The position numbers were made by a program, and so were the translations under genes. Positions 1 to 59,510 of a stretch of DNA of 64,000 nt are shown here, one piece after another (the stretch's first letter is position 1; each line of letters starts with the position of its first letter). Location: positions 14,282 through 78,281 of the IMG/VR virus record IMGVR_UViG_3300021963_000090; one strand, 5' to 3'. The stretch is from a virus. The notes beneath the pieces were generated by a model. It did not search any database. It was not told the DNA's origin and saw nothing but the letters and a program-made list of their open reading frames with translations.

Positions 1-1145
1 GCAGAACCACGACCTGGTCCAACCATAATATTATTATCCTTTGCCCAGTTAACCATATCCGCTACAACCAAGAAATAAGAAGCAAATGCCTTATCCTTAA
101 TAACGGATAGCTCTTCTTCAAGTCTGTCCAAGTAGACCTTATCCTTGTCCAGATCTAGCCTCTTAAGGCCTTCTAAGGCCATCTGAGCCAGTTTCTGGTC
201 AGCATTGGTCTTAGGGACAGGGAGTAGGTCTAGACCCCTGTTAAAATCGTATTCTCCAATTTTAGAGGCTATATCCATAGTATTATCAAATATGTCTGTT
301 CGATTAATCCCTGATTTTTTGAAGTCTGCCTCTATCTCATCTCTAGTCTGAATGAATAGATTGTAATCTACGAATGATATCTTTCTATCTGGATAAAGAT
401 AGTTAAATCTATCTAACATATCTTTCATCTGACGAGACATTTCAAAGTCTGCTTCTTTATCTGACTTAGGAGATGTAGATAATATGAGCATTGCTTCTTC
501 TAGAATGCGGTCTTCTTCTTTAGCAAAGTGGGCATCTCCTGTTGCCACCGCTTTAATTTTAAGTTCATCTGCTAGGCTTAATAGCCCCTCGTTTATTTCT
601 TTCGGATTGTGAGATTGAACCTCAATATAAAAATCATCACCGAAAGTTTTCTTAAAATCTTTGAGAATAAGTTTAGCTTCAGAGAACTCATTCTTCTCGA
701 TGCACTTAGAGATAAGCCCATTGAGGCATCCAGAAAGGACAATAATACCTTCAGCATATTCTTTTAATACCTCTCTGTCGATTCTTGGCTTATGATAGAA
801 GCCTTCATTCCAAGCAAGTTCCTGTAGTGTGTTTATGTTCTCTAAGCCTTTTTTATTTTTAGCCAGAAGAATAATATGATTATAAGCCTGAATAGACTTA
901 TCTGTTTTAGAGGAGCGATCAAATCTATCTGTTGGTGAGATGTACGCTTCTACTCCCAGGATTGGCTTTATGCCTTGCTCCTGACATGCTATCTGCATTT
1001 CACGATGAGAGGACAATGTACCGTGATCTGTTATTGCTAATGCTGTTTGACCAGCATCTTTTGCTGCCTTTACAAGTTCGGCAGGAGAGTTAAGACCATC
1101 CATCAATGAATAATATGAATGCACATGTAAGTGTGTGAATGACAT
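1..1145 (-). CDS. dnaE: DNA polymerase III alpha subunit (PHP domain and start of polymerase domain), 3' truncated by window edge
   Basis: Not in ORF track. Manual translation from ATG at 1145 gives MSFTHLHVHSYYSLMDG...AITDHG (PHP motif) and ends ...IMVGPGRGSA, the canonical DnaE motif, at position 1. Confidence 0.95.
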   Translation of the reverse strand, partial: MSFTHLHVHSYYSLMDGLNSPAELVKAAKDAGQTALAITDHGTLSSHREMQIACQEQGIKPILGVEAYISPTDRFDRSSKTDKSIQAYNHIILLAKNKKGLENINTLQELAWNEGFYHKPRIDREVLKEYAEGIIVLSGCLNGLISKCIEKNEFSEAKLILKDFKKTFGDDFYIEVQSHNPKEINEGLLSLADELKIKAVATGDAHFAKEEDRILEEAMLILSTSPKSDKEADFEMSRQMKDMLDRFNYLYPDRKISFVDYNLFIQTRDEIEADFKKSGINRTDIFDNTMDIASKIGEYDFNRGLDLLPVPKTNADQKLAQMALEGLKRLDLDKDKVYLDRLEEELSVIKDKAFASYFLVVADMVNWAKDNNIMVGPGRGS

Positions 1146-1169
1146 TAACTCTCCGCCTTTAACTTTGTA

Positions 1170-1841
1170 TTACCAGTCTACGCTGCTTGATGTAGCAGAA
1201 GACTCTTCGTTACCACCATTTTCTCCCATATAGAAAGCTTCTTGCTCTGCATATGGAACGTGACGAACTGCTGTCTTTTCAAGATCAAACAATTCAAGGC
1301 TTGCAAAATCGAATGGTGTTTCATCCTTAGCAAGCGGAATGATTGTGTAACTGGTATCTGTTTTGGTTCCGTTACGCTTAATGCGCCACATTAGGTTAGT
1401 AATGCTTCCCATTTCGCCAGCGTATTCAATCAAGGTAGGTGTGATTGTCTTACCACTGGTTCCCTGAGATAGAATTGCAACATACGGCTCTTCTTTACCG
1501 TCGTCAACCAATACATTGATGTATAAGCGTGTTCTGGCCTTCCAGCCAGCCTTTGGATCCTTGCGATGCTGTTCATTTGCCCAATCACGGCCTTCAGACT
1601 CCATTGTATCTAGAGCCTTGCGACGGTAATCCTTTGGGTTTGTGTGCTCTAGTGCGATAAAACCGCAACCAAGCTTGTCGTTATAATTTGGTGAATCTGG
1701 ATCTAGTTCCTGGAGGAATCTAATCTTTACGCTTTCGCCGTCTTCAACCTTAAGCCAGCGGGCCTTGTTGTCATCGCCACCACTGTAGGTAGGCTTATCT
1801 AACGCTTTGTTTAGGTCTTTTAGACCCTTTACTATACTCAT
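1170..1841 (-). CDS. Single-stranded DNA-binding protein (gp32-like)
   Basis: KxRFL motif, WRIKRNGTKTDTSYTI segment, acidic C-terminal tail ending in an aromatic residue (..SSSVDW); lies between primase and polymerase. Confidence 0.75.
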   Translation of the reverse strand: MSIVKGLKDLNKALDKPTYSGGDDNKARWLKVEDGESVKIRFLQELDPDSPNYNDKLGCGFIALEHTNPKDYRRKALDTMESEGRDWANEQHRKDPKAGWKARTRLYINVLVDDGKEEPYVAILSQGTSGKTITPTLIEYAGEMGSITNLMWRIKRNGTKTDTSYTIIPLAKDETPFDFASLELFDLEKTAVRHVPYAEQEAFYMGENGGNEESSATSSSVDW

Positions 1842-1892
1842 TTATTCTCCTTTATAGTTGATGGTATATATCCATCTGTATTTGTCATTATA

Positions 1893-39785: not shown

Positions 39786-41396
39786 ATGGATATTATGAAA
39801 ACCGATAAAATAGTAATAGTTGGAGGCGGATCTGCTGGCTGGATGACTGCTGCTACATTAATTAAAGCTTTTCCGAATAAAGACATTTCAGTCATTGAGT
39901 CTAAAGATGTTCCTACTGTTGGTGTAGGAGAGTCAACTATTGGTGGAATAAGAACATGGACCAGATATATAGGGCTTGATGAATCTACCTTCTTCAAACA
40001 AACCGATGCCTCTTTAAAACTAAGTATTAAATTTACAGATTTTTATAAAAAGGATGGCGGGTCATTTCATTATCCATTTGGACAGGCTGATGTTATTAAC
40101 AATAGAAATCCATTTTTTGACTGGCAATTAAAAAAATATTTTTATCCAGAAACTCCAATTGAGGATTTTGTAAGATGCCTTTTCCCAGCTTCGGCTTTAT
40201 TTGAAAACAATAAATTTTCTTTAAATAATTCAGGGGATTTTGATCACTTTGATGCCGCTAACGATGTTGCGTATCATTTTGATGCAACTAAATTTGGAGT
40301 GTGGCTTAGAGAAAACTATTGTATTCCTAATGGAGTAAAACATATTATAGCAACTGTTTTAGAAACACCAAACGACCAAAACGGAATTAAGCACCTTGTC
40401 CTAGATAATGAAGATATTGTTGAAGCTGATTTATTTATTGATTGTACTGGCTTTAAAAGTCTTTTGCTAGATAAGGCTTTAAATGAACCATTTGACTCGC
40501 TATCCAAAATGCTACCAAACAATAGGGCTTGGGCTACTAGAATTGAATATGAAAATAAAGATATTGAATTAGAAGGTTTTACTAACTGTACAGCTATTGA
40601 AAACGGATGGTGCTGGAATATTCCTTTATGGTCTAGAATAGGAACTGGCTATGTATACTCTGATAAATTTGTAACTCCAGAAGAAGCAAAAGAAGAATTT
40701 AAAAGATATCTAATGTCGGACAAGATGGTTATTCCACGAACTAAGGAGCAGGTAGATGCTCTTGAGTTTAAAGAAATAACTATGCGTGTTGGAATACATA
40801 AAAGAACTTTTGTTAAAAATGTTGTAGCTATTGGCTTATCGGCTGGCTTTATTGAGCCACTTGAGAGCAACGGACTGTTTAGTGTTCATGAATTTTTATT
40901 TAATCTTATAGACATACTACAGCGTGGAGAAATATCTCAATTTGATAGGGATATGTATAATGTAAGTACTCGTGACCTATTTGATCAATTTTCTAAATTT
41001 GTTGCCCTTCACTATGCCCTATCGCATAGAGATGACACAGAATACTGGAAAGACATTAATACTAAAGAATTTAAAGATGAAATTTCAAATGATCCGTATA
41101 CCCCAAATAGGACGAAGGCTGGGGCCTTCTATGATATTATTGGGCGTTATATGGAAGAATGGTTTCATCCATACGGAATGGCTGGTATTACATATATAGC
41201 AACAGGAATGAATCTTCAAATGATAAACGACAATAGGATTGCAAATATGACTTATAGATATAAGCGTGACTACTTATCAGAAGCGGATGCCATTTCTGAA
41301 ATATGGGAAAACAAAAAAGCTAAATGGAATAAGGCTGCAGAATCGTCTCCTAGCCTTAAAAAATTTTTAGAGGACACATTTTATGGCAAAGAATAG
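39786..41396 (+). CDS. Flavin-dependent halogenase (tryptophan halogenase/PrnA family)
   Basis: GGGSAGW FAD motif, GVGEST, SLKLSIKF (catalytic Lys position), FIDCTG, WCWNIP (WxWxIP), FIEPLES. Confidence 0.92.
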   Translation: MDIMKTDKIVIVGGGSAGWMTAATLIKAFPNKDISVIESKDVPTVGVGESTIGGIRTWTRYIGLDESTFFKQTDASLKLSIKFTDFYKKDGGSFHYPFGQADVINNRNPFFDWQLKKYFYPETPIEDFVRCLFPASALFENNKFSLNNSGDFDHFDAANDVAYHFDATKFGVWLRENYCIPNGVKHIIATVLETPNDQNGIKHLVLDNEDIVEADLFIDCTGFKSLLLDKALNEPFDSLSKMLPNNRAWATRIEYENKDIELEGFTNCTAIENGWCWNIPLWSRIGTGYVYSDKFVTPEEAKEEFKRYLMSDKMVIPRTKEQVDALEFKEITMRVGIHKRTFVKNVVAIGLSAGFIEPLESNGLFSVHEFLFNLIDILQRGEISQFDRDMYNVSTRDLFDQFSKFVALHYALSHRDDTEYWKDINTKEFKDEISNDPYTPNRTKAGAFYDIIGRYMEEWFHPYGMAGITYIATGMNLQMINDNRIANMTYRYKRDYLSEADAISEIWENKKAKWNKAAESSPSLKKFLEDTFYGKE

Positions 41397-41670
41397 GTAT
41401 GAGTGGGTATATGCTTTATCTAGAATGAAAGATAGATCATATTGGAATAGGCCAAATACTGTAGAATTTTTTGCTTTTATGACCAAGCTTTCTATTATAT
41501 TTCCAGGGCTTTTATTTGGTAAGCAATGGTGGTGGCTATATATATTTGCTTTAGTTTCTAGTTTAGCTTTAATTTGGTCTTCTACAGTAAAGACCCTGCC
41601 TACAATAATCTTGTTTAATATAGGATGGTCTATATTAGCATCAGCTGCAATAATTAAGGCTTTAACATGA
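41383..41670 (+). CDS. Small membrane protein (~3 TM)
   Basis: Three hydrophobic segments; overlaps the halogenase stop. Confidence 0.65.
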   Translation: MAKNRYEWVYALSRMKDRSYWNRPNTVEFFAFMTKLSIIFPGLLFGKQWWWLYIFALVSSLALIWSSTVKTLPTIILFNIGWSILASAAIIKALT

Positions 41671-42392
41671 GCAAAAAAGAACCAGTGATTGTATATTGGT
41701 CTCCATACTCTAACCCACACAGGGTTTCTTATGTTAACCTATTATGTGAGCCCCCTAAAAAAGTATTAACCACAATAGGATCACCCGTTTCTAATAAAAA
41801 AGCATCTTATCATAACTGCAGATCTCTTCAAAATTTAATGAAAAATACTTACATCATACCAGCACCACTGTCATCTAAATTAAAAATATCTGGATCTTTT
41901 GAAGAGCCATTTCTAACTACAGATAACAATCTATGGAATGCTAGAAGTGCTTCTTTAGATAAAAGATACTCTGTTGACTATGATTTTAGCTGGATCTTTT
42001 TTTCAGAAGAGCAGGTTACTCTTAGAGAGACACATCCATATATGCATAATACGGCTTTTTCAAAATCTGGATATCTAGCATCTGGATCATTTGAAATTAA
42101 TAAATGGTTTAGGCCAATAAATATAACATTTAACTTATGGGAAGACCATAATTCTATTGAGGTTATTGAAAAAGAGCCATTATGTTATGTAGAGTTTGAA
42201 ACATTAGACAACAGGCCAGTTATTCTTAAACAATTTGAATTGACAGAAGATATGTATAATTACTGCACTCAGGCTTTAATTACTTCAAAAAACATTCTGT
42301 CTTTTGAATCACTAGAGTCTTTATATTCTAGATTTATAGGTTCAAATAGACATAAAAAAATAGCTAAACTAATAAAGCAAAACCTACTATAA
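41667..42392 (+). CDS. Hypothetical protein (probably distantly related to 51756-52469)
   Basis: C..L...NTY, G.FEI.KWFRP, EPL.Y pattern; dUTPase-like beta fold suspected. Confidence 0.6.
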   Translation: MSKKEPVIVYWSPYSNPHRVSYVNLLCEPPKKVLTTIGSPVSNKKASYHNCRSLQNLMKNTYIIPAPLSSKLKISGSFEEPFLTTDNNLWNARSASLDKRYSVDYDFSWIFFSEEQVTLRETHPYMHNTAFSKSGYLASGSFEINKWFRPINITFNLWEDHNSIEVIEKEPLCYVEFETLDNRPVILKQFELTEDMYNYCTQALITSKNILSFESLESLYSRFIGSNRHKKIAKLIKQNLL

Positions 42393-42393
42393 A

Positions 42394-42765
42394 TTAACTT
42401 TCTTGCTCTGAGTATAACCACATATCTTCTGGCTCCACCCATATTTTATTTATCGAGATTGGCAGATTTAATTCTTTTATTGTTTTTATCAATTCTTTTT
42501 GTGAATTTGGACCGTATAATGTATTAATTTGTCCATTGATATTAAGGAGATAAAACTCTGCATATGGAGACCATGATGCATATAATCCTTGTCCTCCGCT
42601 TGCCTCCCATATAACTTCCCAAATGTCTACTTCTTCAATTGTAAGTTCACGAGAATAGTCCCAGTCTTTTTTAGGTGGTAGTTGCAATGTATTACTATCC
42701 ATCCAGCTGGGTTCAAAGACTTCTCCGAAGTCAGTAAATATGTTATAGGTAGATTTAAATCTCAA
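42394..42765 (-). CDS. Hypothetical Trp-rich protein
   Basis: 123 aa; TTG start overlapping the stop of the glycine-rich gene. Confidence 0.6.
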   Translation of the reverse strand: MRFKSTYNIFTDFGEVFEPSWMDSNTLQLPPKKDWDYSRELTIEEVDIWEVIWEASGGQGLYASWSPYAEFYLLNINGQINTLYGPNSQKELIKTIKELNLPISINKIWVEPEDMWLYSEQES

Positions 42766-43685
42766 ATCTGGTATCTAACTATTACTACTCCAGATCCACC
42801 AGGTGATGTTATATCTCCAGAGCCGTGGCCTTGGCCACCAGCTCCTCCACCTAAATTGCTACTTGGAGGATTTAATGTTCTATTGGATTCGGAATGACCT
42901 GTTCCACCGCCACCGTTTCCACCTGCTCCTGGAGTATTTGCTCCACCGTTATGTCCTCCACCGCCACCTCCGCCGCCGTAAAAGGTATTAGAGCCAGAAA
43001 TAGAATTTGCTATACCAGATCCTCCTGCTCCATTGGTGCCACCAGAACCTGGATAAGCTTGTCCAACTGCGCCTGCTCCGCCTCCACCGCCTGAAGCGTG
43101 TTGTGATGCTGACGGGTGGTTTGATCCTCTACCGCCAGAATTTCCGTAACCAGTAAATCCAGCAGGAGATGTTTGAATCGCAGAACCTCCGCTCTGACCA
43201 CTTCCTGAGCAAGGTGACCAGCATGCTCCGCCTCCACCGCCTGATCCACCATTAGCTCCTGGTAAATTTGAGTTAGTTCCAGAACCTCCACCGCCACCAA
43301 TTGCTGTTAAACTTCCAAAAGAACTATTGTTACCATTAGGAGCCTGACCACCATAACTATTTATAGTAGAAGTTGCACCTCCAACAACAACTGAATACGG
43401 ATTTGCAGCTAATGAATAGTTGCTTGAATATATAATTCCTCCGCCGCCTCCGCCACCTCCATGTGCTCCGCCTCCGCCGCCTCCGCCAGCAACAACAAAT
43501 ATTTCAGCGTTAATTGGAAGGCCGTATGAATCTAAAGCAAAATTTTCTGTGCCAGATGTAAAAGTGTGTGTTCTATAACCGCCAGCGGTAGAAATTGTAC
43601 CACCAGAAATCATAAACTTACTTCCAACACGTTTAGATCTTGATTGTGGCCCAAAAGAGCCTCTTATGCTGCTTACAAATGGCAT
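42762..43685 (-). CDS. Glycine-rich adhesin-like protein (copy B)
   Basis: Same framework as 35711-36640 with different inter-Gly loops. Confidence 0.75.
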   Translation of the reverse strand: MPFVSSIRGSFGPQSRSKRVGSKFMISGGTISTAGGYRTHTFTSGTENFALDSYGLPINAEIFVVAGGGGGGGAHGGGGGGGGIIYSSNYSLAANPYSVVVGGATSTINSYGGQAPNGNNSSFGSLTAIGGGGGSGTNSNLPGANGGSGGGGGACWSPCSGSGQSGGSAIQTSPAGFTGYGNSGGRGSNHPSASQHASGGGGGAGAVGQAYPGSGGTNGAGGSGIANSISGSNTFYGGGGGGGGHNGGANTPGAGGNGGGGTGHSESNRTLNPPSSNLGGGAGGQGHGSGDITSPGGSGVVIVRYQI

Positions 43686-48220: not shown

Positions 48221-49015
48221 TTATGCAAACTTTGTCTGTGATCCGAATACAGTAAAGGTTGCTGATCCTGTCTTAATAATTGTAAATGCATATGAATCTA
48301 TAGAAGAAGCATTACCTGCAGATGGTGCTGTTCCGCCTTGCCATTTTGGAGTAACTGCTGCTCCATCAATTTGAAATGCTGATTGATAATATGCTGTAGA
48401 TCCTTGAGTTGCTAAGAATACTACAGTGATTGAATCTCCTGTTGTCAGGATTGAATCTAAAGATGCGCTTGAACTTCCACGAACATTTAGTGTCCAGTTT
48501 GCTGAAGCATTTGTTGTGTAATATAAAACACCTTGAGTTGAAGCATCAAAATTGATTGTACCAGTTGCTGCGGTTGCTGAAACTGTAGTTCTTTCTTGTG
48601 GTGCTTTTAAAATATTGTTATGTAATGTTGCTGTATTTACTACTGGACTTGTTAAAGTTTTATTAGTTAAAGTTTGTGTTCCTGTTAATGTTACAGCACC
48701 AGTAATTGTATTACTTGCTGTATCAATTGTTTTATTTGTTAGGGTTTGTGAACCAGTTAATGTAGCAACTGTTGAATCAATTGCAAGGGTTACCGATCCA
48801 GAATTTCCACCACCGCTTAATCCTGTGCCAGCTGTAACTCCAGAAATATCTCCATCTGTTGCTGTATATGGAAGAGAGGTCCAGGCAGTAGTTCCATCTC
48901 CAACCTTTGTTTTTTTGGTATCTGTTTCAAATACCATTTCTCCCGCTGCCAATACGGGGTTTGCAGAGGTAAGAGCTGCGGCTGTTCCTCTTTTAAGCTG
49001 AATAATGGCTGACAT
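48221..49015 (-). CDS. Short fibre protein (Mtd/hyaluronidase-like N-terminal anchor)
   Basis: IQLKRGT..NPVLAAGE..ETDT.K.KVGDGTTAW, QTLTNKT repeats, C-terminal IDSYAFT domain. Confidence 0.75.
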   Translation of the reverse strand: MSAIIQLKRGTAAALTSANPVLAAGEMVFETDTKKTKVGDGTTAWTSLPYTATDGDISGVTAGTGLSGGGNSGSVTLAIDSTVATLTGSQTLTNKTIDTASNTITGAVTLTGTQTLTNKTLTSPVVNTATLHNNILKAPQERTTVSATAATGTINFDASTQGVLYYTTNASANWTLNVRGSSSASLDSILTTGDSITVVFLATQGSTAYYQSAFQIDGAAVTPKWQGGTAPSAGNASSIDSYAFTIIKTGSATFTVFGSQTKFA

Positions 49016-49227
49016 TAAATTGTTCCTCCGTCAAACGTATTTGTTGTTGTACTAGCAATTATACTATATACTACACTATCAAGGATACCATCGATCTCTC
49101 CACCGTCATGAGATGTATTAGAGGCAGGCTCGGCGAGACCACTTGTAATGGTTCCATCTTCTGAATATTGTCCAGCATTTACCACTGACAATGTTGATAA
49201 CTTAAGGGTCATTATACTACTCTCCAT
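49015..49227 (-). CDS. Small protein ending in DGG motif
   Basis: ~65-70 aa; coupled to neighbours. Confidence 0.5.
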   Translation of the reverse strand: MESSIMTLKLSTLSVVNAGQYSEDGTITSGLAEPASNTSHDGGEIDGILDSVVYSIIASTTTNTFDGGTI

Positions 49228-51710
49228 CCGTAACTAGATCCAGAATATAGCAATGAGACTCCGCCAAATGCCACGTCTATATCGAGATTCTGTACTGTTC
49301 CATTTATTTTATTTGAATTAGAGCTTAAAGTTATATTATTAATTGCTGCTGATCCTGTTGAATCATATACATATATTCCATCTCCCAATGCAGGGGATGC
49401 TGGTAAAGTTAATGTTCTAGCAGAACTTGTATCTACAAAGTATCTATGCGCTGACTCTAGCGTGATATTAGATGAAACTTCTAATGAAACTATAGAAGAG
49501 CCATCGGCACCATCAGCACCAGCTGGACCCTGTGGTCCTGCGGGACCAGTTGCGCCTTGCTGTCCAGTAAATCCTGGTGAGAACTCAACCCAGAAACTAT
49601 CATGATAAATATATGCACGACCAGTTGCTGTGTTATACCAGACTTGTCCTGCCAATGGGTTTGTTGGTGGAGTTAAGCCAGGCTGAAAATCTCCTGGAAT
49701 ACCTTGTGGGATTGAAAAATTAAATATAGCATCAGATGTTGTTCCAACATTTTCTATTGTAGCATCTGATGAATATGATCCAGTTTCTACAGTTCCTACA
49801 GCAAGGGTCGATGCTCGACCAGTCTGTAGCTCAAAATCAAATATCGCATCGCTGGTAGTTCCTACATTTGTAACAGTTGATGGATTACCAAAATCTACAT
49901 CTACTACATCTCCGATTTCAATTGTTGATCTCGGTCCCGCTGGAATTTGGAAATCAAATACTGCATCGCTTGTGTCCCCTGAATTTGTTACAGTTGCTGG
50001 ATTGCCATCTAATACAGTTGTTACTTCACCAACTTCTATTGTTGCCGCTCTACCTGCGGGAATCTCAAAATCAAATACTGCGTCAGATGTGTCTCCAGAG
50101 TTAGTTACTGTTGGAGGCTGTCCATATAAAACATCTTCTACCGTTCCAACCTCAATGGTTGCTGCACGACCTGCAGGAATTTCAAAATCGAATACAGCAT
50201 CGCTGGTATCTCCGCTATTTACTACTGTTGGCGGATTTCCAAATAATACTGTGTCTACTGTACCTACTTCAATAGTTGAAGCACGGCCTGCTGGTATTTC
50301 AAAATCTAATATTGCGTCTGTTGTTGTGCCAACATTTGTAATTGTTGGAGGCTCACCAAATAGTACAGTAGTTACTGTGCCAACTTCCATTTCTCCAGTA
50401 TCGCCCTTATCTCCCTTTTCAATTACTAGTTGCCAATTAGGAGTAGATGGAGCTGTGCCTGCTGGACTATTTACTTCATTTAATCTCCAGAGAGATCCTT
50501 GATATGTTACGCCATCGTTTTCAAGATAAGAAACACCTGAGTTCCAGGCCCCTTGATATTCTAGGAATGCTGGACCTTGAGGACCTGTTGCACCTGTTGC
50601 AACTGCTTCAACCCAGTATGAATCATAATACACATATAATTTTGCATTTACTGTATCAAACCATGCGTCGCCTTCTGTGGGTAATGCAGGAGCAGTTGCA
50701 GATACTGTAACTCCTCCACCTGTTCCTCCGCCGCCTCCGCCGCCAGAGCCAGAAATTTCTACCCAGAATGCTCCATCATAAATATAAAGTATTGCTGTAT
50801 CTGAATCTAGCCATAGATCTCCAACATTTGGATCAGCTGGAGCGGTAGAAGAAATATCAGCAGATGTTCCACCTGTTGATGTTAAACTTAATTCTTTATT
50901 TACTGAGTCATACTCTACAGTTATATTTGTATGTGTTCCATTTGTGATAATTGCTGCTGCAGTATCTTGAATACGCTCATCAATATCTAATTCTGTTTGT
51001 GGGACAAATCCATTTTCGTCTAGAGAAGCAACTCCATCAGGATTTCCAACATCTGATTGTGGTACATATGTATCTGGCAAAGAATTTCCGAGACTTGCGA
51101 CGGCTTCATCGGTATACTCATTTGCTGTTGTAATAGCATTTGTTATAGCAGTAGAAACTGTTGTTGCAAAATTTGAATCGTCATTAATTGCTGCAGCAAT
51201 CTCATTAAGAGTATCTAAAAGCCCTGGGGCAGCATCTACTAGATTCGATATAGCCGTGGTTACATAAGATTGTGTGGCTATTGAAGATGTGTCAACAGAT
51301 AAGGTAATTGTATTTGCTTCATCATCGTACGATTTTACTATACCTGTGCCAGCCGTTAATGCTGTAGCAATTGCATCCATAGCCATTTCGTTGCTATAGG
51401 TTGCAGATAGGTTTATTTTGTTATTGTCATCGTCATATGTGACGGTAATTCCAGAATGAGTTCCAGCGGTTAAAACTCCACCGACTATATCTTGTATTGC
51501 TTCTGTATCTACAGATCCGCCTTCAAGGGCGGCAACTCTGTAGTCAAGGCTTGTGGCTACGGCAGAACCGTCGACGCCTACCTTAGCCTGCAAGGCCTCA
51601 ATTGCATCGTTGGCATTAGCGTGTTGCGCTGAATGCGAAACCGCTTGTACCGAATCCGTAGATTGCGGGTTAACTAGAGAATCTAAATCCTCTGGGAAAT
51701 TTGTTGCCAT
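49212..51710 (-). CDS. Long fibre-like protein with collagen triplets and six 39-aa repeats
   Basis: H..AND.I.ALQAKVG anchor, LDTLNEIAAA, GVASLD, APxxPxxGDxW modules, GxxGxxG stretches. Confidence 0.75.
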   Translation of the reverse strand: MATNFPEDLDSLVNPQSTDSVQAVSHSAQHANANDAIEALQAKVGVDGSAVATSLDYRVAALEGGSVDTEAIQDIVGGVLTAGTHSGITVTYDDDNNKINLSATYSNEMAMDAIATALTAGTGIVKSYDDEANTITLSVDTSSIATQSYVTTAISNLVDAAPGLLDTLNEIAAAINDDSNFATTVSTAITNAITTANEYTDEAVASLGNSLPDTYVPQSDVGNPDGVASLDENGFVPQTELDIDERIQDTAAAIITNGTHTNITVEYDSVNKELSLTSTGGTSADISSTAPADPNVGDLWLDSDTAILYIYDGAFWVEISGSGGGGGGGTGGGVTVSATAPALPTEGDAWFDTVNAKLYVYYDSYWVEAVATGATGPQGPAFLEYQGAWNSGVSYLENDGVTYQGSLWRLNEVNSPAGTAPSTPNWQLVIEKGDKGDTGEMEVGTVTTVLFGEPPTITNVGTTTDAILDFEIPAGRASTIEVGTVDTVLFGNPPTVVNSGDTSDAVFDFEIPAGRAATIEVGTVEDVLYGQPPTVTNSGDTSDAVFDFEIPAGRAATIEVGEVTTVLDGNPATVTNSGDTSDAVFDFQIPAGPRSTIEIGDVVDVDFGNPSTVTNVGTTSDAIFDFELQTGRASTLAVGTVETGSYSSDATIENVGTTSDAIFNFSIPQGIPGDFQPGLTPPTNPLAGQVWYNTATGRAYIYHDSFWVEFSPGFTGQQGATGPAGPQGPAGADGADGSSIVSLEVSSNITLESAHRYFVDTSSARTLTLPASPALGDGIYVYDSTGSAAINNITLSSNSNKINGTVQNLDIDVAFGGVSLLYSGSSYGWRVV
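49701..50392 (-). repeat. Six tandem 117-bp (39-aa) coding repeats
   Basis: TIEVGTV.....P.TV.N.G.TSDA.FDFEIPAG x6; DNA period 117 nt. Confidence 0.9.
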
Positions 51711-51755: not shown

Positions 51756-52469
51756 TTAACTTGAAGTCATGCCAATACGGTAGCCTTTTTTATAGTGAGC
51801 CATAGGCACTGACTCTTTTTCTTTTATCAACTCGATCTTCTGTTCAAAAAACTCTCTATCTGTATTAATCTCTGCCTCCCAGTCTTCTCTTTTTATTGGA
51901 ATAATTGACATTATTGGAGTGCCAGCTTCAATAACACCTTCAAAATTATCCTTAATGTGGAAGCTCACGTTTCCAGGCAATGGGTACACATCGTAGTCTG
52001 CTAGACCAGAAACGGTACTAAATGGTAAATCGTATCTATTTATTGGATGGGTGATCATAGCAGACCAACCTTCTGGCATTTGAAAGCCCCAATACATTTG
52101 CCATCCGAAATGTGCCTGATAGTGTCCGCTTGGAACTGGCATCTCATGAAGGACTCGATTTGCGACTGGCTCCATGTCATGATTCCAAGATAGTCTTGGA
52201 AGACCATCTATAATTTTAACATTAATATCTGTATGCAACAAGTAGTGGTATCCTGCCGTCATTGCATCATAATACGGCATACAATGTTTCATACTTAGAA
52301 ATACATTATTTCTATTAGCCTCCCCGTTTTTAAACTTTTCAAGGTCTCCGTCGCCATGAAATCTTGGCATATCTTTCCAGTAGGGTGCTATATTTTTTCT
52401 AGCTGCTGCTGGAGGCATGAGCTCTTCAGCTTTTCTATCCCAAGGGTAAAAGGTAATTGTATTAGGCAT
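51756..52469 (-). CDS. Hypothetical protein (DUF6065-like; dUTPase-like fold suspected)
   Basis: KHCMPYYDAMTAGY, P.GWS...THP.NR..LPF, GTPI..IIP.KRE.W motifs. Confidence 0.6.
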   Translation of the reverse strand: MPNTITFYPWDRKAEELMPPAAARKNIAPYWKDMPRFHGDGDLEKFKNGEANRNNVFLSMKHCMPYYDAMTAGYHYLLHTDINVKIIDGLPRLSWNHDMEPVANRVLHEMPVPSGHYQAHFGWQMYWGFQMPEGWSAMITHPINRYDLPFSTVSGLADYDVYPLPGNVSFHIKDNFEGVIEAGTPIMSIIPIKREDWEAEINTDREFFEQKIELIKEKESVPMAHYKKGYRIGMTSS

Positions 52470-53529
52470 TTAAACTCTTCTCTAAATCATACAGGGCTTT
52501 TGCGGCTGGGAACTTATCGCCAGTCTGTTCAACAATATTATTTAAATCTTTATAAAACTTTTTGTAATCTATTCCAGAAACTTTCTCATATTCATTCAAC
52601 AACTCTATCGTTGGAGAGCCATACTCTCCTAGTATTTGTCCAGTTAATATTTGCTTATTTCTAAGAGTTCCAGCAACAACCTTATCTCTAAAAGAGATAC
52701 CCTTTTCATTCTTTTCTAAATATTTTTGCTTCCATGAATTTGGAACATCCCTGCCCATTGTATACATCTCTCTAGTCCATAAAACATGATCTTTTATATT
52801 AAATATTCTATAGCCTCTTGTCCAGGCAAGCATAGCTATGACATTTTCTTCGTGGTAGGCAAGTTGTGGATCATACTTAACATCATTTACAAAACTACCT
52901 AACGTAAACAAGAAATGTCCAGATATTAAATAGTGCTTTTCATAATCAGCGTTTTCAAACTTTGCCCTTGCTGCTGCTGGTGAATTTAATGCTTCTATAC
53001 CATATACAAACATTTTATATTTTTCTTGATCTTCCATGCCAATAGCCTCTGGGCTATCTTTAGAGACAAGTGACCAGTTTGGATATTCGCCTTCCCAATC
53101 TTCATTTTGTGCCATTGTTAGTTTTTGTCCACTTACTCTGTCTCTATAGTAGTATGGAACATATGTTGATATTATTGGTTTATCAGCTATCTTTCTTATG
53201 TTATTAAGATTATTTATTAATTTAATATCCCAGTCTTTTTTAAATACAGTATGGGCATCTATCTGTAAATAGTACTCTTCTCCGTCGTACAGGGTTGATG
53301 CTAATCCTCGTGCTACTCCAAGACCTAGCCCAACCATTTCATTATTTTTTATATATTTTACATTCTTAAATATTGATAGATCTGGAAAATTATTATCTGT
53401 ATATTGCATAACAACACCAGCATAAACATTATCTGGATTATTAGCCTTAGAAAAAGCGGTGCTTAAAGTATCTAAAAGATCCTCTTCGTTATATGCTGCT
53501 ACATTTATAAAAATATAACCATTTTTCAT
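52462..53529 (-). CDS. GT-A glycosyltransferase, GT60/Skp1-GlcNAc-transferase-like
   Basis: IFINVAAY, AR, EEYYLQIDAH..F..DWD, SGHFLF, YDP, EE....LAWTRGY: pattern of the GlcNAc (GT60) family. Confidence 0.75.
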   Translation of the reverse strand: MKNGYIFINVAAYNEEDLLDTLSTAFSKANNPDNVYAGVVMQYTDNNFPDLSIFKNVKYIKNNEMVGLGLGVARGLASTLYDGEEYYLQIDAHTVFKKDWDIKLINNLNNIRKIADKPIISTYVPYYYRDRVSGQKLTMAQNEDWEGEYPNWSLVSKDSPEAIGMEDQEKYKMFVYGIEALNSPAAARAKFENADYEKHYLISGHFLFTLGSFVNDVKYDPQLAYHEENVIAMLAWTRGYRIFNIKDHVLWTREMYTMGRDVPNSWKQKYLEKNEKGISFRDKVVAGTLRNKQILTGQILGEYGSPTIELLNEYEKVSGIDYKKFYKDLNNIVEQTGDKFPAAKALYDLEKSLNA

Positions 53530-53530
53530 T

Positions 53531-53818
53531 TTACCACTTACCTAAAGGACAACTTGCGTTTTCTAGTTTTGTTTTTAAAGTCATGATGCATCCACATTTT
53601 TTACATTGCTTAGTTAAATTAATTAACTCTGGGCAAGAATTGCATATGCCCATTCTTTCTTCAATCAAAGACTCGTCTTCTAAATATTTATCTGGGTTTA
53701 GGGCATGCCAGGGTCTTGATTCGCCAAGATTTTTTTTATACTGTTGCCAAGCCGATAGCTTTTCTTCTGACAAAACTACTCCTCTGGAGATAAAAACTGG
53801 GTTCCATTCCATATCCAC
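53531..53818 (-). CDS. Small Cys-rich protein (DUF6171-like)
   Basis: R..IC..CP....KQCKKCGC.M..K..L..ASCPLGKW. Confidence 0.7.
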   Translation of the reverse strand: MDMEWNPVFISRGVVLSEEKLSAWQQYKKNLGESRPWHALNPDKYLEDESLIEERMGICNSCPELINLTKQCKKCGCIMTLKTKLENASCPLGKW

Positions 53819-54222
53819 CCAGGCTGTACATTTAAAGAAGAATCAAATTCTATAATATCTGGATTAGACTCTAAACCAGCACATACCATTGATATAAAAT
53901 CTTCTGACATTATGGTTTTATCTAATGTATAGAATCCTATTACTTCATTTCCTACTATACCAGCATACTTTATAACATCTGGATTGTCAATAGGACTTTT
54001 TGGTAATGGCGTCCTCATTTCTAAATCTTCTGGGTCATAAAAATTTTCTCCATCAAATAAGCATCCGCTCCTTAATTGTGAATATTCAATAGTTTTTTTA
54101 AAAATAAGCCCAGATCTTAATCCAGCAGACCATTTTATTCCAGTTGGGTTATCTTCTGGAAGACCTAAAGTATCAAAAACATCTCCGTCTGCAACTAAAG
54201 CAAACATATTATAAATTGTCAT
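53776..54222 (-). CDS. Hypothetical protein with two tandem repeats resembling fibre-assembly modules
   Basis: FALVADGDV...G..FDGENF and YAGIVGNEV...GWIWNGTQF. Confidence 0.6.
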   Translation of the reverse strand: MTIYNMFALVADGDVFDTLGLPEDNPTGIKWSAGLRSGLIFKKTIEYSQLRSGCLFDGENFYDPEDLEMRTPLPKSPIDNPDVIKYAGIVGNEVIGFYTLDKTIMSEDFISMVCAGLESNPDIIEFDSSLNVQPGWIWNGTQFLSPEE

Positions 54223-54231
54223 TTTTTCTCC

Positions 54232-54867
54232 TTAACATAAGTATGATCCTAGATTTGTACATGCACATGACGAGTTATATCTTCCAAGTCTTATACATGG
54301 ATCTGGACAACAATTACATAAACTGCAAGATGCGGTTACTTCACAGGTTCCACCAACAGTACATCCTGGAGATGCATAATAAACTGGTGCAGCGTAGTAC
54401 TGAGGTGCTGCATAGTACTGGGGTGCAGCGTAGTACTGAGGTGCAGCGTAGTACTGAGGTGCTGCATAGTACTGAGGTGCAGCGTAGTACTGAGGTGCTG
54501 CATAGTACTGAGGTGCAGCGTAGTACTGGGGTGCAGCGTAGTACTGAGGTGCTGCGTAGTACTGAGGTGCTGCATAATATTGTGGAGCTGCGTAATATTG
54601 TGGCGGTGCATAATAAACGGGTGCAACATAATTATAATAAACAAAAGAAATGCTAGTTCCAATTAAAACTGTATCTTCACTAGATGTATCTTGAGATTGA
54701 ATATAATTTGTTAATCCTGAATCTGATGTATTTGTTGTTGATTCTGAATAATTAAGTCCAGCTGCTTGAATTGCTGTTATTGCTTGAGATCTTGTTAGTC
54801 CTGACAAATTAGGGACATTAACTTTTCTTACGCCACTCCTTTTATATTTGCCAGTTCTTCTACGCAT
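54232..54867 (-). CDS. PASTA-domain protein with (PQYYAA)n repeat and 10-Cys C-terminal domain
   Basis: VPNLSGLTRSQA..AI..AGL....IQSQ....V..GTSI is a PASTA signature; 12 exact hexapeptide repeats; 10 Cys in the last 43 aa. Confidence 0.8.
   Translation of the reverse strand: MRRRTGKYKRSGVRKVNVPNLSGLTRSQAITAIQAAGLNYSESTTNTSDSGLTNYIQSQDTSSEDTVLIGTSISFVYYNYVAPVYYAPPQYYAAPQYYAAPQYYAAPQYYAAPQYYAAPQYYAAPQYYAAPQYYAAPQYYAAPQYYAAPQYYAAPQYYAAPVYYASPGCTVGGTCEVTASCSLCNCCPDPCIRLGRYNSSCACTNLGSYLC
54370..54621 (-). repeat. 18-bp tandem coding repeat, 12 exact PQYYAA units plus 2 degenerate flanks
   Basis: Unit tgc(a/t)gc(g/a)tagtactg(a/g)gg on the plus strand; variation among the 12 core units is synonymous. 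Confidence 0.95.
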
Positions 54868-54868
54868 T

Positions 54869-57145
54869 CTATGCGCTCAGATCGCCCAATACAACCCAAG
54901 AATTAAGTGCTCGTTTAATAAGTGTAGCGCTGCTCCACTGAGTACGTAATTTTAATCCAGGGGTGGCATTAGGAGTAAATGAAGTTCCAGCTATAGTAAC
55001 TTGTGAAGCACCTGTCTGTAAAATATCGCATGTAAATCCTACAGGGAAAGAAGCGGAATCTGTTATTGTTAATGTTCCGCCTGCAGACATTTCAATAAGT
55101 CTATTAGAGTCTATCGGCAAAATAGTGTAGCCTGCAGATTTAGAATTTATTGTTATTGTATTATCAGACTGCACAGAAATTGATCCACTCATGGATGAAT
55201 GGAACTGGCAAGCATAATAAAGATTATCTGGGGCATCTTGAGGAAGCTCTACTAGGATATGACCTGCTTGTGCTCCGCCATTTGTTATTCCAGTTGAATA
55301 TACGTTGCCTGAGCTATAAGCACCTGACACTGTTTGAATCCAGAATGGGTGTCCTGTAGCATTAACATGTATTCTATATTTCTTACCTTTTTCAAAAGTG
55401 ATTAATCCGTTAGATACACCGTTTACTAGATAAGCTCCAGATCCAGAGTTTGTAATATAATAATCAACCGAAGGATCTGATAGGTTTAACTTTAAATCTA
55501 ATGCTGTCTGTGTTGCAGTTGATACTGGCTTATTTGCATCTGTAGTGTTATCAACATTTCCTAGATCCACCATTGATTTTGTAATACCTGAAACTGTTCC
55601 AGTAAAAGTTGGTGAAGCAATTGGTGCTTTTGCACCCAATGCCGTTGTGACTGTAGATGCAAAAGATGCGTCATCATTTATAGCCGCTGCGAGTTCATTT
55701 AAAGTATTTAATGTTGTTGGAGCAGTGTCTATTAAATTAGATATCGCTGTAGAAACATAAGACTCTGTTGCAAAGTCTCCGTCTGTTAAAGCTGCATTAA
55801 ATTCTACCAATGTTCCGCTAATAGCATTTCCGCCTACAGTTATATTAAATCTTGTTCCGCCAGCATTTGTTGCTAAACCAGAAACATATCCAATTCCAGA
55901 AGTTGCTACTGATATAACGCCAAGGGAGCTAATGTTTATTCTTCCGCCTCTGTCTAGCCCTGCTTGATAAATTGGTATATTATTCTGACCAGCTAGACCC
56001 TCAATATTATCTACAGCCGAGATAGAAGTAATTCCAGTGCCTAGACCAATTACTTTATTTGTTAAAGTTTGAGCCGCAGTATTTCTTGTAACTTCTGATG
56101 CAAGTTCTGAGTCTGGAATCTTTCCATTTGAATCTAATGAAGCTACACCGTCTACTGCGCCAACATCTGATATTGGCACATAGTTCTCTGGAAGAGAGTT
56201 ACCTAATCCTGCAACTGCCTGGTCTGTATACTCATTTGCATCCGCAATATCTCCCATAGTTGCAATATGGTTGTTTGCAATGGTTGAATCATTTAAGTAT
56301 GCTCCACCTACACCATGTTGTAATACTAAGTTTTGATCTGCAACAATAGCAAACACATCGTCTCCTGGCTCTCCACTAATTCCAGAAACAATTAGCGTTC
56401 CACCTCCTGGACCATGTAAAACTCCATCTGACCCAAATTGCCAGTAATTATCCCAAGACTCTTCATGACTAAATACATGAGCTGCTCCTCCAACAAATGA
56501 TGCTGGTTCTCCATTTAAATTTGCTGTAATAGTTTGTAGACCAGAACTTGGTGAGTCTGTTGTAACAGAATCAACAGTGACTATATCTCCGCCTGGATAA
56601 AACATCGTATCGCCTACATAAATATTTGCTGTATTGCTAACTACAAAAGAAGTGTTGCTTGTTTCGTTTAAATTTGTATAAGTGTTAATAATTGTTTCTG
56701 GTCTTGTACTAATATATACAGATCTTGCTCCGTCAGATACACGAACATTATTTCTTTCTCCACCAATAAATAGATCTGCACCTGAAGCATCTTGAGTTCC
56801 ACCACCACGAATATGAATGTGGTTTGGAGCTGTAGGATCAATAATTAAATACTGATCTGTATTAATGTCTGCATCTGGAACTAACTCTATTGTTCCATTG
56901 CCATATCCGTCACCAGATGCTGTTCCAGCACCAATAATCTGTACGCCATCAAATGTGATATCTCCAGTATTAGTACCATTAGAAGAAGGGTCTATAGAAG
57001 GAAGACTAGCCCATAGAGTTGTTCCGTCTCCTATTTTAGTTATTTTATTTGTTAAGTCATAGCCAAACTCACCAGACAATAATGGTGTTGTACGGGCCGC
57101 CCATTGTGTAGCAGTTCCTCTTTTTACTCTTATTGTAACTGACAT
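54869..57145 (-). CDS. Fibre protein (Mtd-like anchor) with cupredoxin-like domain
   Basis: IRVKRGT..GE.G...KIGDG anchor; GHPF...LYYACQFHSSMSG; C-terminal LRTQWSSATLIKRALNSWVVLGDL. Confidence 0.75.
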   Translation of the reverse strand: MSVTIRVKRGTATQWAARTTPLLSGEFGYDLTNKITKIGDGTTLWASLPSIDPSSNGTNTGDITFDGVQIIGAGTASGDGYGNGTIELVPDADINTDQYLIIDPTAPNHIHIRGGGTQDASGADLFIGGERNNVRVSDGARSVYISTRPETIINTYTNLNETSNTSFVVSNTANIYVGDTMFYPGGDIVTVDSVTTDSPSSGLQTITANLNGEPASFVGGAAHVFSHEESWDNYWQFGSDGVLHGPGGGTLIVSGISGEPGDDVFAIVADQNLVLQHGVGGAYLNDSTIANNHIATMGDIADANEYTDQAVAGLGNSLPENYVPISDVGAVDGVASLDSNGKIPDSELASEVTRNTAAQTLTNKVIGLGTGITSISAVDNIEGLAGQNNIPIYQAGLDRGGRINISSLGVISVATSGIGYVSGLATNAGGTRFNITVGGNAISGTLVEFNAALTDGDFATESYVSTAISNLIDTAPTTLNTLNELAAAINDDASFASTVTTALGAKAPIASPTFTGTVSGITKSMVDLGNVDNTTDANKPVSTATQTALDLKLNLSDPSVDYYITNSGSGAYLVNGVSNGLITFEKGKKYRIHVNATGHPFWIQTVSGAYSSGNVYSTGITNGGAQAGHILVELPQDAPDNLYYACQFHSSMSGSISVQSDNTITINSKSAGYTILPIDSNRLIEMSAGGTLTITDSASFPVGFTCDILQTGASQVTIAGTSFTPNATPGLKLRTQWSSATLIKRALNSWVVLGDLSA

Positions 57146-59458: not shown

Positions 59459-59488
59459 AAAACTCCTATGCTCATTTTAGCATAGGAG
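59459..59488 (-). terminator. Terminator hairpin with an embedded extended -10 element
   Basis: CTCCTATGCT-AAAATG-AGCATAGGAG + TTTT; TGCTAAAAT spans stem and loop. Confidence 0.65.
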
Positions 59489-59510
59489 CCGTCCTAATTG
59501 ATTTTAGTTT

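Follow-up and report, generated by a model that had tools for sequence, protein, structure and literature searches.

Why should an uncultured aquatic phage encode, one nucleotide behind a tail-fibre gene, a small protein that repeats the hexapeptide PQYYAA twelve times without a single deviation, and why should a glycosyltransferase (GT) of the GT60 type be encoded in the same run of genes? The question is raised by a block of six open reading frames (ORFs; positions 51756-57145, minus strand) in a 64,000-nt stretch, hereafter the window, of the 78-kb IMG/VR virus record IMGVR_UViG_3300021963_000090, which is judged to be ~72% complete. An initial annotation of this DNA had taken the repeat for a dedicated substrate of the neighbouring enzymes. 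That idea now has comparative support, in that one subclade of GT60 enzymes is found only beside Tyr-Tyr (YY) or Tyr-His (YH) arrays, on whatever carrier protein these are borne. We regard the chances as evenly balanced that the array is indeed the substrate of the GT; the block would then be a phage tail-fibre "tip cassette" of a kind that works with tyrosine and has no hydroxylase.

The tyrosine array and the GT60 enzyme

The array is borne by a 211-aa carrier (54232-54867; like every feature of the block, on the minus strand) that begins with a basic N-terminus and a PASTA domain (residues 16-76, 54640-54822) and ends in a Cys-rich C-terminal tail (54235-54369). The PASTA match (PF03793, E = 5.3e-7, model positions 1-61 of 64 covered) reaches 29.9 bits against a cut-off of 23.2. 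The array itself (54370-54621; Tandem Repeats Finder period 18) consists of the 12 perfect PQYYAA units, flanked at either end by a single PVYYA(P/S) unit, and 10 Cys were counted within the 51-residue tail; the initial annotation was right on all three parts. Altogether the array holds 14 Tyr-Tyr pairs, and its 12 perfect units contain not a single Ser or Thr. At the DNA level these units differ solely at third codon positions and every difference is synonymous, which points to selection on the peptide sequence. Homologous carrier N-termini occur 43 times in viral loci, and a tblastn search for them in cultured phages found none. In relatives of the carrier the C-terminus is formed by a Hint domain or by a Cys-rich tail of another kind; the window carrier has no Hint domain. 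Of the features of a ribosomally synthesised and post-translationally modified peptide (RiPP), we recognised no leader peptide, recognition element or protease, and no search was aimed at them.

The enzyme (355 aa, 52462-53529) had been called GT60-like, and the call is sound: PF11397 matches it with 109.8 bits (E = 2.6e-31) against a cut-off of 21, and the metal-binding D-x-H motif of GT-A enzymes is kept as D91-A-H93. Neither D91 nor H93 varies among 25 homologues, whose identity reaches down to 31%. Searching the sequence against the PDB gave only noise.

A search for related loci with the GT protein as a single query returned nothing, whereas an alignment of the 25 homologues retrieved 77 viral loci (from the best 80 of ~250 viral GT60 loci), and clustering at 90% identity left 47 clusters. 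Eleven of these share 40.9-100% identity with the window GT. On the same strand and no more than 6 kb away, every one of the 11 has an array of 2-20 tandem Y[YH]..P pairs, and none has a prolyl 4-hydroxylase (P4H) gene nearby (within 8-10 kb). No such array is found in any of the 36 other GT60 clusters, 17 of which have P4H genes. The initial annotation had made its proposal dependent on the enzymes occurring together with PASTA-repeat genes, and across genomes this GT subclade does occur with the Tyr repeats, on PASTA carriers and on others.

Scanning in the reverse direction, at the DNA level, for YYA[AP]P-x-YYA[AP]P, we found that the viral contigs with at least two exact matches are all GT60 contigs. 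One further true array, in L122, is unplaced. This contig carries an open-ended ORF of >620 aa (1-1864, minus strand), in which the (YYAP/YYAPPP)n array is joined by two Cys-rich modules and by ~400 residues that consist almost purely of Ser/Thr/Gly/Met repeats. Two contigs with one match each (L120 and L124) were set aside: they encode small Gly/Tyr-rich proteins and have no GT60.

In a maximum-likelihood tree, the YY-linked GTs and a small nested group linked to (VG)n repeats form one clade (support 96/90). With a span of ~2 substitutions per site, the clade must have kept this linkage for a long time. The remaining rows on the same side of the tree are P4H-linked GTs, which form a loosely supported group (80/81), and this sister clade accompanies prolyl-hydroxylase arrays and PPxF-type repeats. 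The split into P4H-linked and Tyr-linked clades fits a putative change of acceptor. A third, distant GT60 clade (13 rows labelled "none") has neither repeats nor hydroxylases.

Within the YY-linked clade the array sits on very different proteins: on carriers with the PASTA N-terminus (the window, L044, L046, L048, L054 and L056), on carriers with an FN3-like N-terminus and no PASTA domain (L043 and L047), on an FN3 plus Hint carrier (L045), and on 650-aa proteins with multiple immunoglobulin-like (Ig) domains in a different genomic neighbourhood (L042 and L049). Since the same repeat type recurs on unrelated carriers, it is the repeat, and not the carrier or the phage backbone, that stays with the GT clade. 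The PASTA domain, which the initial annotation had made part of the association, is dispensable for it, because the FN3-type carriers have the same repeat and the same GT. The comparison thus supports the view that repeat and neighbouring enzymes are matched, with the repeat as a cassette.

Which residue could receive a sugar in such arrays? At least five of them (the window, L042, L047, L048 and L049) are devoid of Ser and Thr. We found no P4H in the 78-kb record with PF13640, and none in the window or in any YY-linked locus with our own hidden Markov models (HMMs). Because several arrays are free of Ser and Thr and no hydroxylase was found in the 11 loci or in the record, Tyr is the only hydroxyl that the arrays have in common.

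Several observations weigh against the array being the substrate of this enzyme. To our knowledge, the known GT60 enzymes use hydroxyproline (Hyp), Ser or Thr as acceptors, and a GT60 enzyme that acts on Tyr would be a novelty. As read from the aligned GTs, the tree shows one evolutionary origin of the repeat-GT linkage, which is a matter of retention and not of repeated independent gain. In the nested (VG)n subgroup (L050-L053 and L055), the GT60 gene and its dUTPase-fold partner (see below) follow large PASTA-containing proteins whose C-terminal part is made of a long (Val-Gly)n tract and a Hint domain, and in which YY occurs just once. Within one and the same GT clade the repeat chemistry can thus be a different one, and a long Tyr array is no requirement. 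Members of the dUTPase-fold family are also found where there is no GT, haloarchaeal tailed viruses being one example. One locus (L028) combines Tyr/Asn/Pro repeats with P4H genes and lacks a GT60 gene within 10 kb. Finally, GTs in the "host recognition cluster" (fibre islands) of aquatic myophages have been read as modifiers of the host O-chain (PMC7029224).

This published reading, the large GT60 clade without repeats or hydroxylases, and the (VG)n subgroup, in which the GT does without a Tyr array, would all suit an alternative that we consider unlikely: the array would be an unmodified structural element, a rigid or adhesive Pro/aromatic spacer at the fibre tip, and the GT with its partners would glycosylate another virion protein, such as the flanking fibres, or the host envelope, to the effect of superinfection exclusion or receptor masking. 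What such a spacer leaves unexplained is the presence of a YY array within 6 kb of this GT clade, on unrelated carriers, in 11/11 clusters versus 0/36, as well as the way in which the sister clade tracks P4H genes and PPxF arrays.

Pro is kept in every repeat unit of the clade, and the enzyme might act on Hyp, as in the Skp1 pathway. PF11397 is the family of Gnt1, the sister GT clade sits with P4H arrays and the record is only ~72% complete. Pro would first be hydroxylated by an unrecognised enzyme, whether encoded in the ~28% of the genome that the record lacks, supplied by the host, or identical with the dUTPase-fold protein, which would then act in a way that has no precedent. We nevertheless find this distinctly improbable, given that no P4H-like gene lies within 8-10 kb in the 11 YY-linked clusters or anywhere in the 78 kb at hand; nor do we know of any oxygenase with a dUTPase fold.

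Repeat types and their enzymes, seen from the carriers

The linkage can also be approached from the carrier side. A search with an alignment of carrier N-termini returned 33 viral PASTA loci with sequence upstream, and in all 33 the carrier gene comes after a fibre with the same C-terminal domain, directly so in nearly all. This arrangement bears on a quite different explanation. PASTA domains are known from penicillin-binding proteins and Ser/Thr kinases that bind wall precursors, and the PASTA-repeat protein could be a non-virion, cell-wall-directed accessory that is set free upon lysis or acts while infection proceeds, for instance through binding of peptidoglycan precursors, with unrelated morons as its neighbours. 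We find this very hard to credit, considering the constant position behind one fibre domain, the location of the carrier gene in the middle of a structural operon, and the FN3/Ig N-termini of other carriers, which look like virion decoration domains.

The carriers lose all resemblance to one another past a conserved ...FVYYNYVAP junction, and which enzymes are encoded nearby varies with the repeat type. The initial annotation had suggested a check of whether repeat sequence co-varies with the type of adjacent enzyme. When run, it paired YY/YH arrays with GT60, and Pro-aliphatic, PPxF and NPGF arrays with P4H-like genes. Loci with YYAP, YHAP or PQYYAA arrays (the window, L010, L019 and L031) have a GT60 gene with one or two dUTPase-fold genes and no P4H. 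Arrays of PPIIAVT, PPVV, PPxF or NPGF, often with FN3 inserts, are accompanied in most loci by prolyl-hydroxylase-like 2-oxoglutarate (2OG) oxygenases and never by GT60; no prolyl-hydroxylase-like genes were found beside the PVT arrays of L036 and L037. Carriers with Cys-rich non-repetitive modules have DUF6171 genes as their only company.

In a relative, L034 (the same contig as L006; 3977-11775), two Hint-ended carriers bracket six P4H-like and two dUTPase-fold genes, and this locus is the hydroxylase-rich counterpart of the window block.

The other genes of the block and their surroundings

The last gene of the block (51756-52469) encodes a 237-aa protein that had been labelled DUF6065-like. 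The label is apt, with the proviso that the match to PF19541 (14.7 bits, E = 0.022) lies below the Pfam cut-off of 26.6; the protein belongs to phrog_7084 (E = 5e-30). Its AlphaFold2 (AF2) model has a mean predicted local distance difference test (pLDDT) score of 94.9. In VIA-align the top 23 matches of this model are all members of the dUTPase/dCTP-deaminase superfamily or viral dUTPase-fold proteins (Z 9.6-5.0), with the next match at Z 3.0, and Foldseek gives E = 1e-4. On the predicted structure, this partner of the GT has the fold of the dUTPase/dCTP-deaminase superfamily. Searches of the PDB by sequence, with single sequences and with a profile of the family (A3), returned no dUTPase and only noise. 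Two segments are near-invariant in the family alignment, G155-x2-D158-x-D160 and G183-T-P-x2-Q188, and we take them to recall dUTPase motifs III and IV. The family is large (1328 clusters at 50% identity).

A natural 552-aa metagenomic protein (P0075) carries a GT60 domain and a dUTPase-fold (phrog_7084) domain in one chain. It is 44% identical to the window GT (E = 4e-91) and 35% identical to the window partner (E = 6e-36). Because it fuses both, this protein supports a direct functional tie that would link the two genes in the window as well.

Homologues of the partner (27-35% identity) are found in Halorubrum phage HF2 (L119, AF222060.2 48119-49003) and in 48 other haloarchaeal virus records, from cultured tailed viruses. 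The HF2 homologue has its own promoter repeat and adjoins the tail/baseplate module, with no GT nearby. Elsewhere in the window, a tryptophan-halogenase-family gene (PF04820, E = 8e-103) lies antisense among the structural genes and is followed by two small ORFs (39786-42392, plus strand). The 241-aa ORF at 41667-42392 was tried as a DUF6065-like/phrog_7084 relative and rejected (hhalign E = 0.21, probability 0.3%), some motif positions lining up all the same.

The Cys-rich partner that had been noticed between carrier and GT is a DUF6171 protein (53531-53812). PF19668 matches it above the cut-off (32.2 bits against 27), phrog_13558 does so with E = 9e-17, and its six Cys, spaced C-x2-C-x9-C-x2-C-x-C-x12-C, are each kept in 97-100% of 40 distinct sequences. 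The gene is present in most PASTA loci and usually comes first in the enzyme block, and its product may be a metal-binding helper that leads this block. Homologues exist in cultured cyanophages and in phages of Stenotrophomonas, Rhizobium and Leptospira, and these cultured phages could possibly serve as laboratory models for the helper role. In Synechococcus phage Sf-FS3 (PV340856.1 183750-183926) the DUF6171 match overlaps the region of an annotated prolyl 4-hydroxylase gene; in another cultured phage, S-CBWM1, the context of the match is uninformative.

Upstream of the DUF6171 gene, a 148-aa protein (53776-54222) matches no Pfam family. It had been described as two-repeat and chaperone-like. 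The first part is weakly borne out, as an alignment of one half with the other spans 34 residues at E = 0.006; the second remains a lead, with an Atlas score of only 0.77 to Caudo_TAP that hints weakly at a role in tail-fibre assembly. Its homologues occur in some of the loci only (16 ORFs with our own HMM, duplicates of one contig included).

The block opens with the fibre gene (54869-57145), which encodes 758 aa with an Mtd_N-type N-terminus (Pfam Mtd_N, E = 6e-8) and matches more than 20 tail-fibre PHROGs. In the AF2 model the last 205 residues (pLDDT 83.5) form two beta domains. The first of these (residues ~560-659, 55169-55468; pLDDT ~90) has as its top Foldseek matches copper nitrite reductase, two-domain laccases, the cupredoxin AcoP and CueO, among 187 matches at E<=1e-3. 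The copper motif reported in the initial annotation, H...C-x2-H-x2-M, is indeed there: H46, C93, H96 and M99 (numbering of alignment A4) are invariant in 11 aligned fibre sequences, and 13 distinct fibres carry the motif. According to the model, this domain has a cupredoxin fold, and it holds the ligand set of a putative type-1 copper site. Pfam copper families gave no match to the fibre at E<=0.1, and a phmmer search of the fibre C-terminus against the PDB gave only noise. A tail fibre with a conserved site of the blue-copper type would be unusual, and its putative copper binding could easily be tested.

The initial annotation had also counted this fibre among the enzyme set, which proved too specific. 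Fibres with the cupredoxin domain occur with every type of carrier and repeat, including Cys-rich, PP-rich and NPGF carriers; the domain is therefore not part of a Tyr-specific chemistry and not tied to the GT. For the same reason we set aside cross-linking of Tyr by the fibre copper site, since cupredoxin fibres also accompany carriers with only Cys or only Pro. Type-1 copper sites are, moreover, electron-transfer sites and not oxidases. Nothing in the present comparison speaks for the cross-linking of the repeat that the initial annotation had allowed for.

The second beta domain (~95 aa, 54872-55150, ending in ...GDLSA; our own HMM, phrog_8780 and phrog_21978) is the conserved C-terminal domain that ends every fibre preceding a carrier gene in the PASTA loci, and it was found in 61 ORFs. 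A complex prediction for the fibre C-terminus with the PASTA N-terminus scored 0.00, which is not evidence either way.

Beyond the block, the next fibre (832 aa; 49212-51710, minus strand) combines a collagen-like G-x-y stretch with a CBM5/12-like segment that scores below the cut-off, and a ~35-residue repeat (...VGTV..V..G.P.T.TN.G....A.FDFEIPAGR...) occurs in it six times. The gene at 48221-49015 (minus strand) encodes a second fibre-like protein that begins with Mtd_N (E = 6e-16), and a protein with a Gly_rich_2 domain (PF21722, E = 5e-12) at 42762-43685 (minus strand). With the fibre of the block, these last two make at least three fibre-like proteins within 15 kb.

The six ORFs exist as initially described, co-oriented and tightly packed, inside a long minus-strand run of structural genes. 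A gap of 1 nt separates fibre and PASTA protein, and one of 9 nt separates the latter from the 148-aa ORF. The DUF6171 gene (ATG start as in the Atlas record) overlaps this ORF by 37 nt, the GT gene begins 1 nt past the end of the DUF6171 gene, and the gene for the 237-aa protein overlaps the GT gene by 8 nt. No strong terminator-like site was found on the minus strand within the block. Just upstream of the structural run that contains the block, a strong terminator-like hairpin (59461-59490, minus strand; 12 pairs and a T tract) suggests a possible boundary of the transcription unit.

The block DNA recurs almost unchanged in contigs from runs of four studies (labelled marine, estuary and freshwater), so the stretch is not an assembly artefact; these contigs cover the block, and none of them bridges the repeat array (54415-54523). 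No RNA dataset is listed as carrying the stretch, and a megablast of the region against cultured phages gave no match. The record encodes an HK97-type capsid, a portal and a class II ribonucleotide reductase. Since the portal is 57-60% identical to the portals of 120-135-kb Streptomyces phages, an actinobacterial host is our best guess. The host markers that were sought, WhiB (PF02467) and tRNAs, are found neither in the record nor in the window. An actinobacterial host with an exposed wall would fit the PASTA domain.

A proposed mechanism and its nearest relatives

How might such a block work? The gene order places, after a fibre with the conserved C-terminal domain, a small carrier made of PASTA, (PQYYAA)12 and a 10-Cys tail. 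The carrier would be made in step with the fibre and would sit at or near the distal end of the latter. The three co-transcribed genes that come next encode the six-Cys DUF6171 protein, the retaining-type GT60 and the dUTPase-fold partner, which may together form a tailoring unit in the cytoplasm of the infected cell. This unit would move a sugar, probably an N-acetylhexosamine (HexNAc) by analogy with the family, from a uridine diphosphate (UDP)-sugar onto the repeat. The acceptors would most likely be the Tyr hydroxyls, because the array has no Ser, no Thr and no source of Hyp. As for the dUTPase-fold protein, it might handle the uridine nucleotide or present the peptide to the GT. The product would be a rigid, glycan-bearing Pro/aromatic stalk that ends, at the fibre tip, in a knob stabilised by disulfides or metal, and its sugars would aid solubility, protease resistance or contact with the host envelope.

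In its full form the proposal is tentative, and we hold it to be possible if somewhat doubtful: a phage GT60 subfamily would have switched from Hyp to Tyr and, by glycosylating the array of 14 Tyr-Tyr pairs, would build a glycan-bristled, polyproline-like stalk at the fibre tip. Its helpers would be a six-Cys metal protein and a dUTPase-fold protein, the latter a hitherto undescribed kind of accessory to protein-tailoring enzymes that handles nucleotides or presents the peptide, so that an exchangeable cassette of substrate and tailoring enzymes diversifies the surfaces that contact the host.

In thousands of aquatic phages, genes for P4H-like oxygenases, for transferases of the GT60 type and for dUTPase-like proteins lie near the fibre genes, and the literature takes them to modify the host surface. 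For the alternative idea that phages tailor their own fibre tips, the window offers the cleanest test case: a single GT with two small partners and no hydroxylase, and one small carrier in whose array Tyr is the sole possible kind of hydroxyl. If the proposal is true, tyrosine glycosylation joins the chemistry of virions, the GT60 family gains a new acceptor, the large orphan family of dUTPase-fold proteins gains a role, and there is an explanation for how cassettes of repeat and enzymes diversify host recognition.

The initial annotation knew of no described phage system with this architecture, and our literature search likewise found no description of one. On DUF6171, DUF6065 or PASTA proteins of phage fibres the search found nothing. 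By enzyme family, the closest known system is the Hyp-GlcNAc pathway of Skp1 in Dictyostelium and Toxoplasma, in which the prolyl 4-hydroxylase PhyA acts first and the GT60 enzyme Gnt1 second. Gnt1 belongs to the same Pfam family, PF11397, as the window GT. It is a cytoplasmic, soluble enzyme that acts on protein, as the window GT would be by analogy, and the D-x-H motif is kept in the latter; in addition, the sister clade of phage GTs is co-encoded with P4H-type oxygenases. However, the hydroxylase that defines the pathway is absent here, the candidate acceptor is a multi-copy Tyr-rich array in place of a single Hyp, and the window adds a dUTPase-fold protein, a DUF6171 protein and the setting of a virion fibre.

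A virus that encodes both a tailoring enzyme and a repetitive Pro-containing substrate has a precedent in chlorovirus PBCV-1, whose prolyl 4-hydroxylase is reported to act on virus-encoded Pro-rich (PAPK)n repeats. That system differs in using a 2OG oxygenase and not a GT, in the chemistry of its repeat, in belonging to a eukaryotic virus and in having no linkage to a fibre. In gene layout, the carrier recalls gp37/gp38 of the T-even phages, where a small gene, for a tip adhesin or an assembly factor, also comes right after the fibre gene, is highly variable and has short repeats between conserved segments. No relation of sequence or fold between gp38 and the carrier was detected, and the binding of carrier to fibre is putative here.

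For a sugar on a Tyr hydroxyl there are precedents in glycogenin (GT8), which is a retaining GT-A enzyme, and in the S-layers of Paenibacillus and Thermoanaerobacter. Tyr O-glycosylation of S-layers is listed in PMC2943079. Both precedents involve GT families unrelated to GT60, act at a single site or a few sites as opposed to an array of 14 pairs, and are not viral.

The nearest established phenomenon is the glycosylation of virions in mycobacteriophages, whose GTs O-glycosylate the phage's own virion proteins (Freeman et al., 2023, PMC10527164, as cited in PMC12619734). There too, by the account given in the citing paper, phage GT genes lie beside structural genes and work in the cytoplasm of an actinobacterial host. 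The targets named in that account are the C-termini of capsid and tail-tube subunits, whereas the candidate here is a tandem-repeat carrier behind a fibre, known from genes alone, and the GT is a GT60 enzyme with two accessory proteins. Virion glycosylation and viral pairs of a repeat with its tailoring enzyme are thus already known; what would be new here is the tyrosine-type, hydroxylase-free case.

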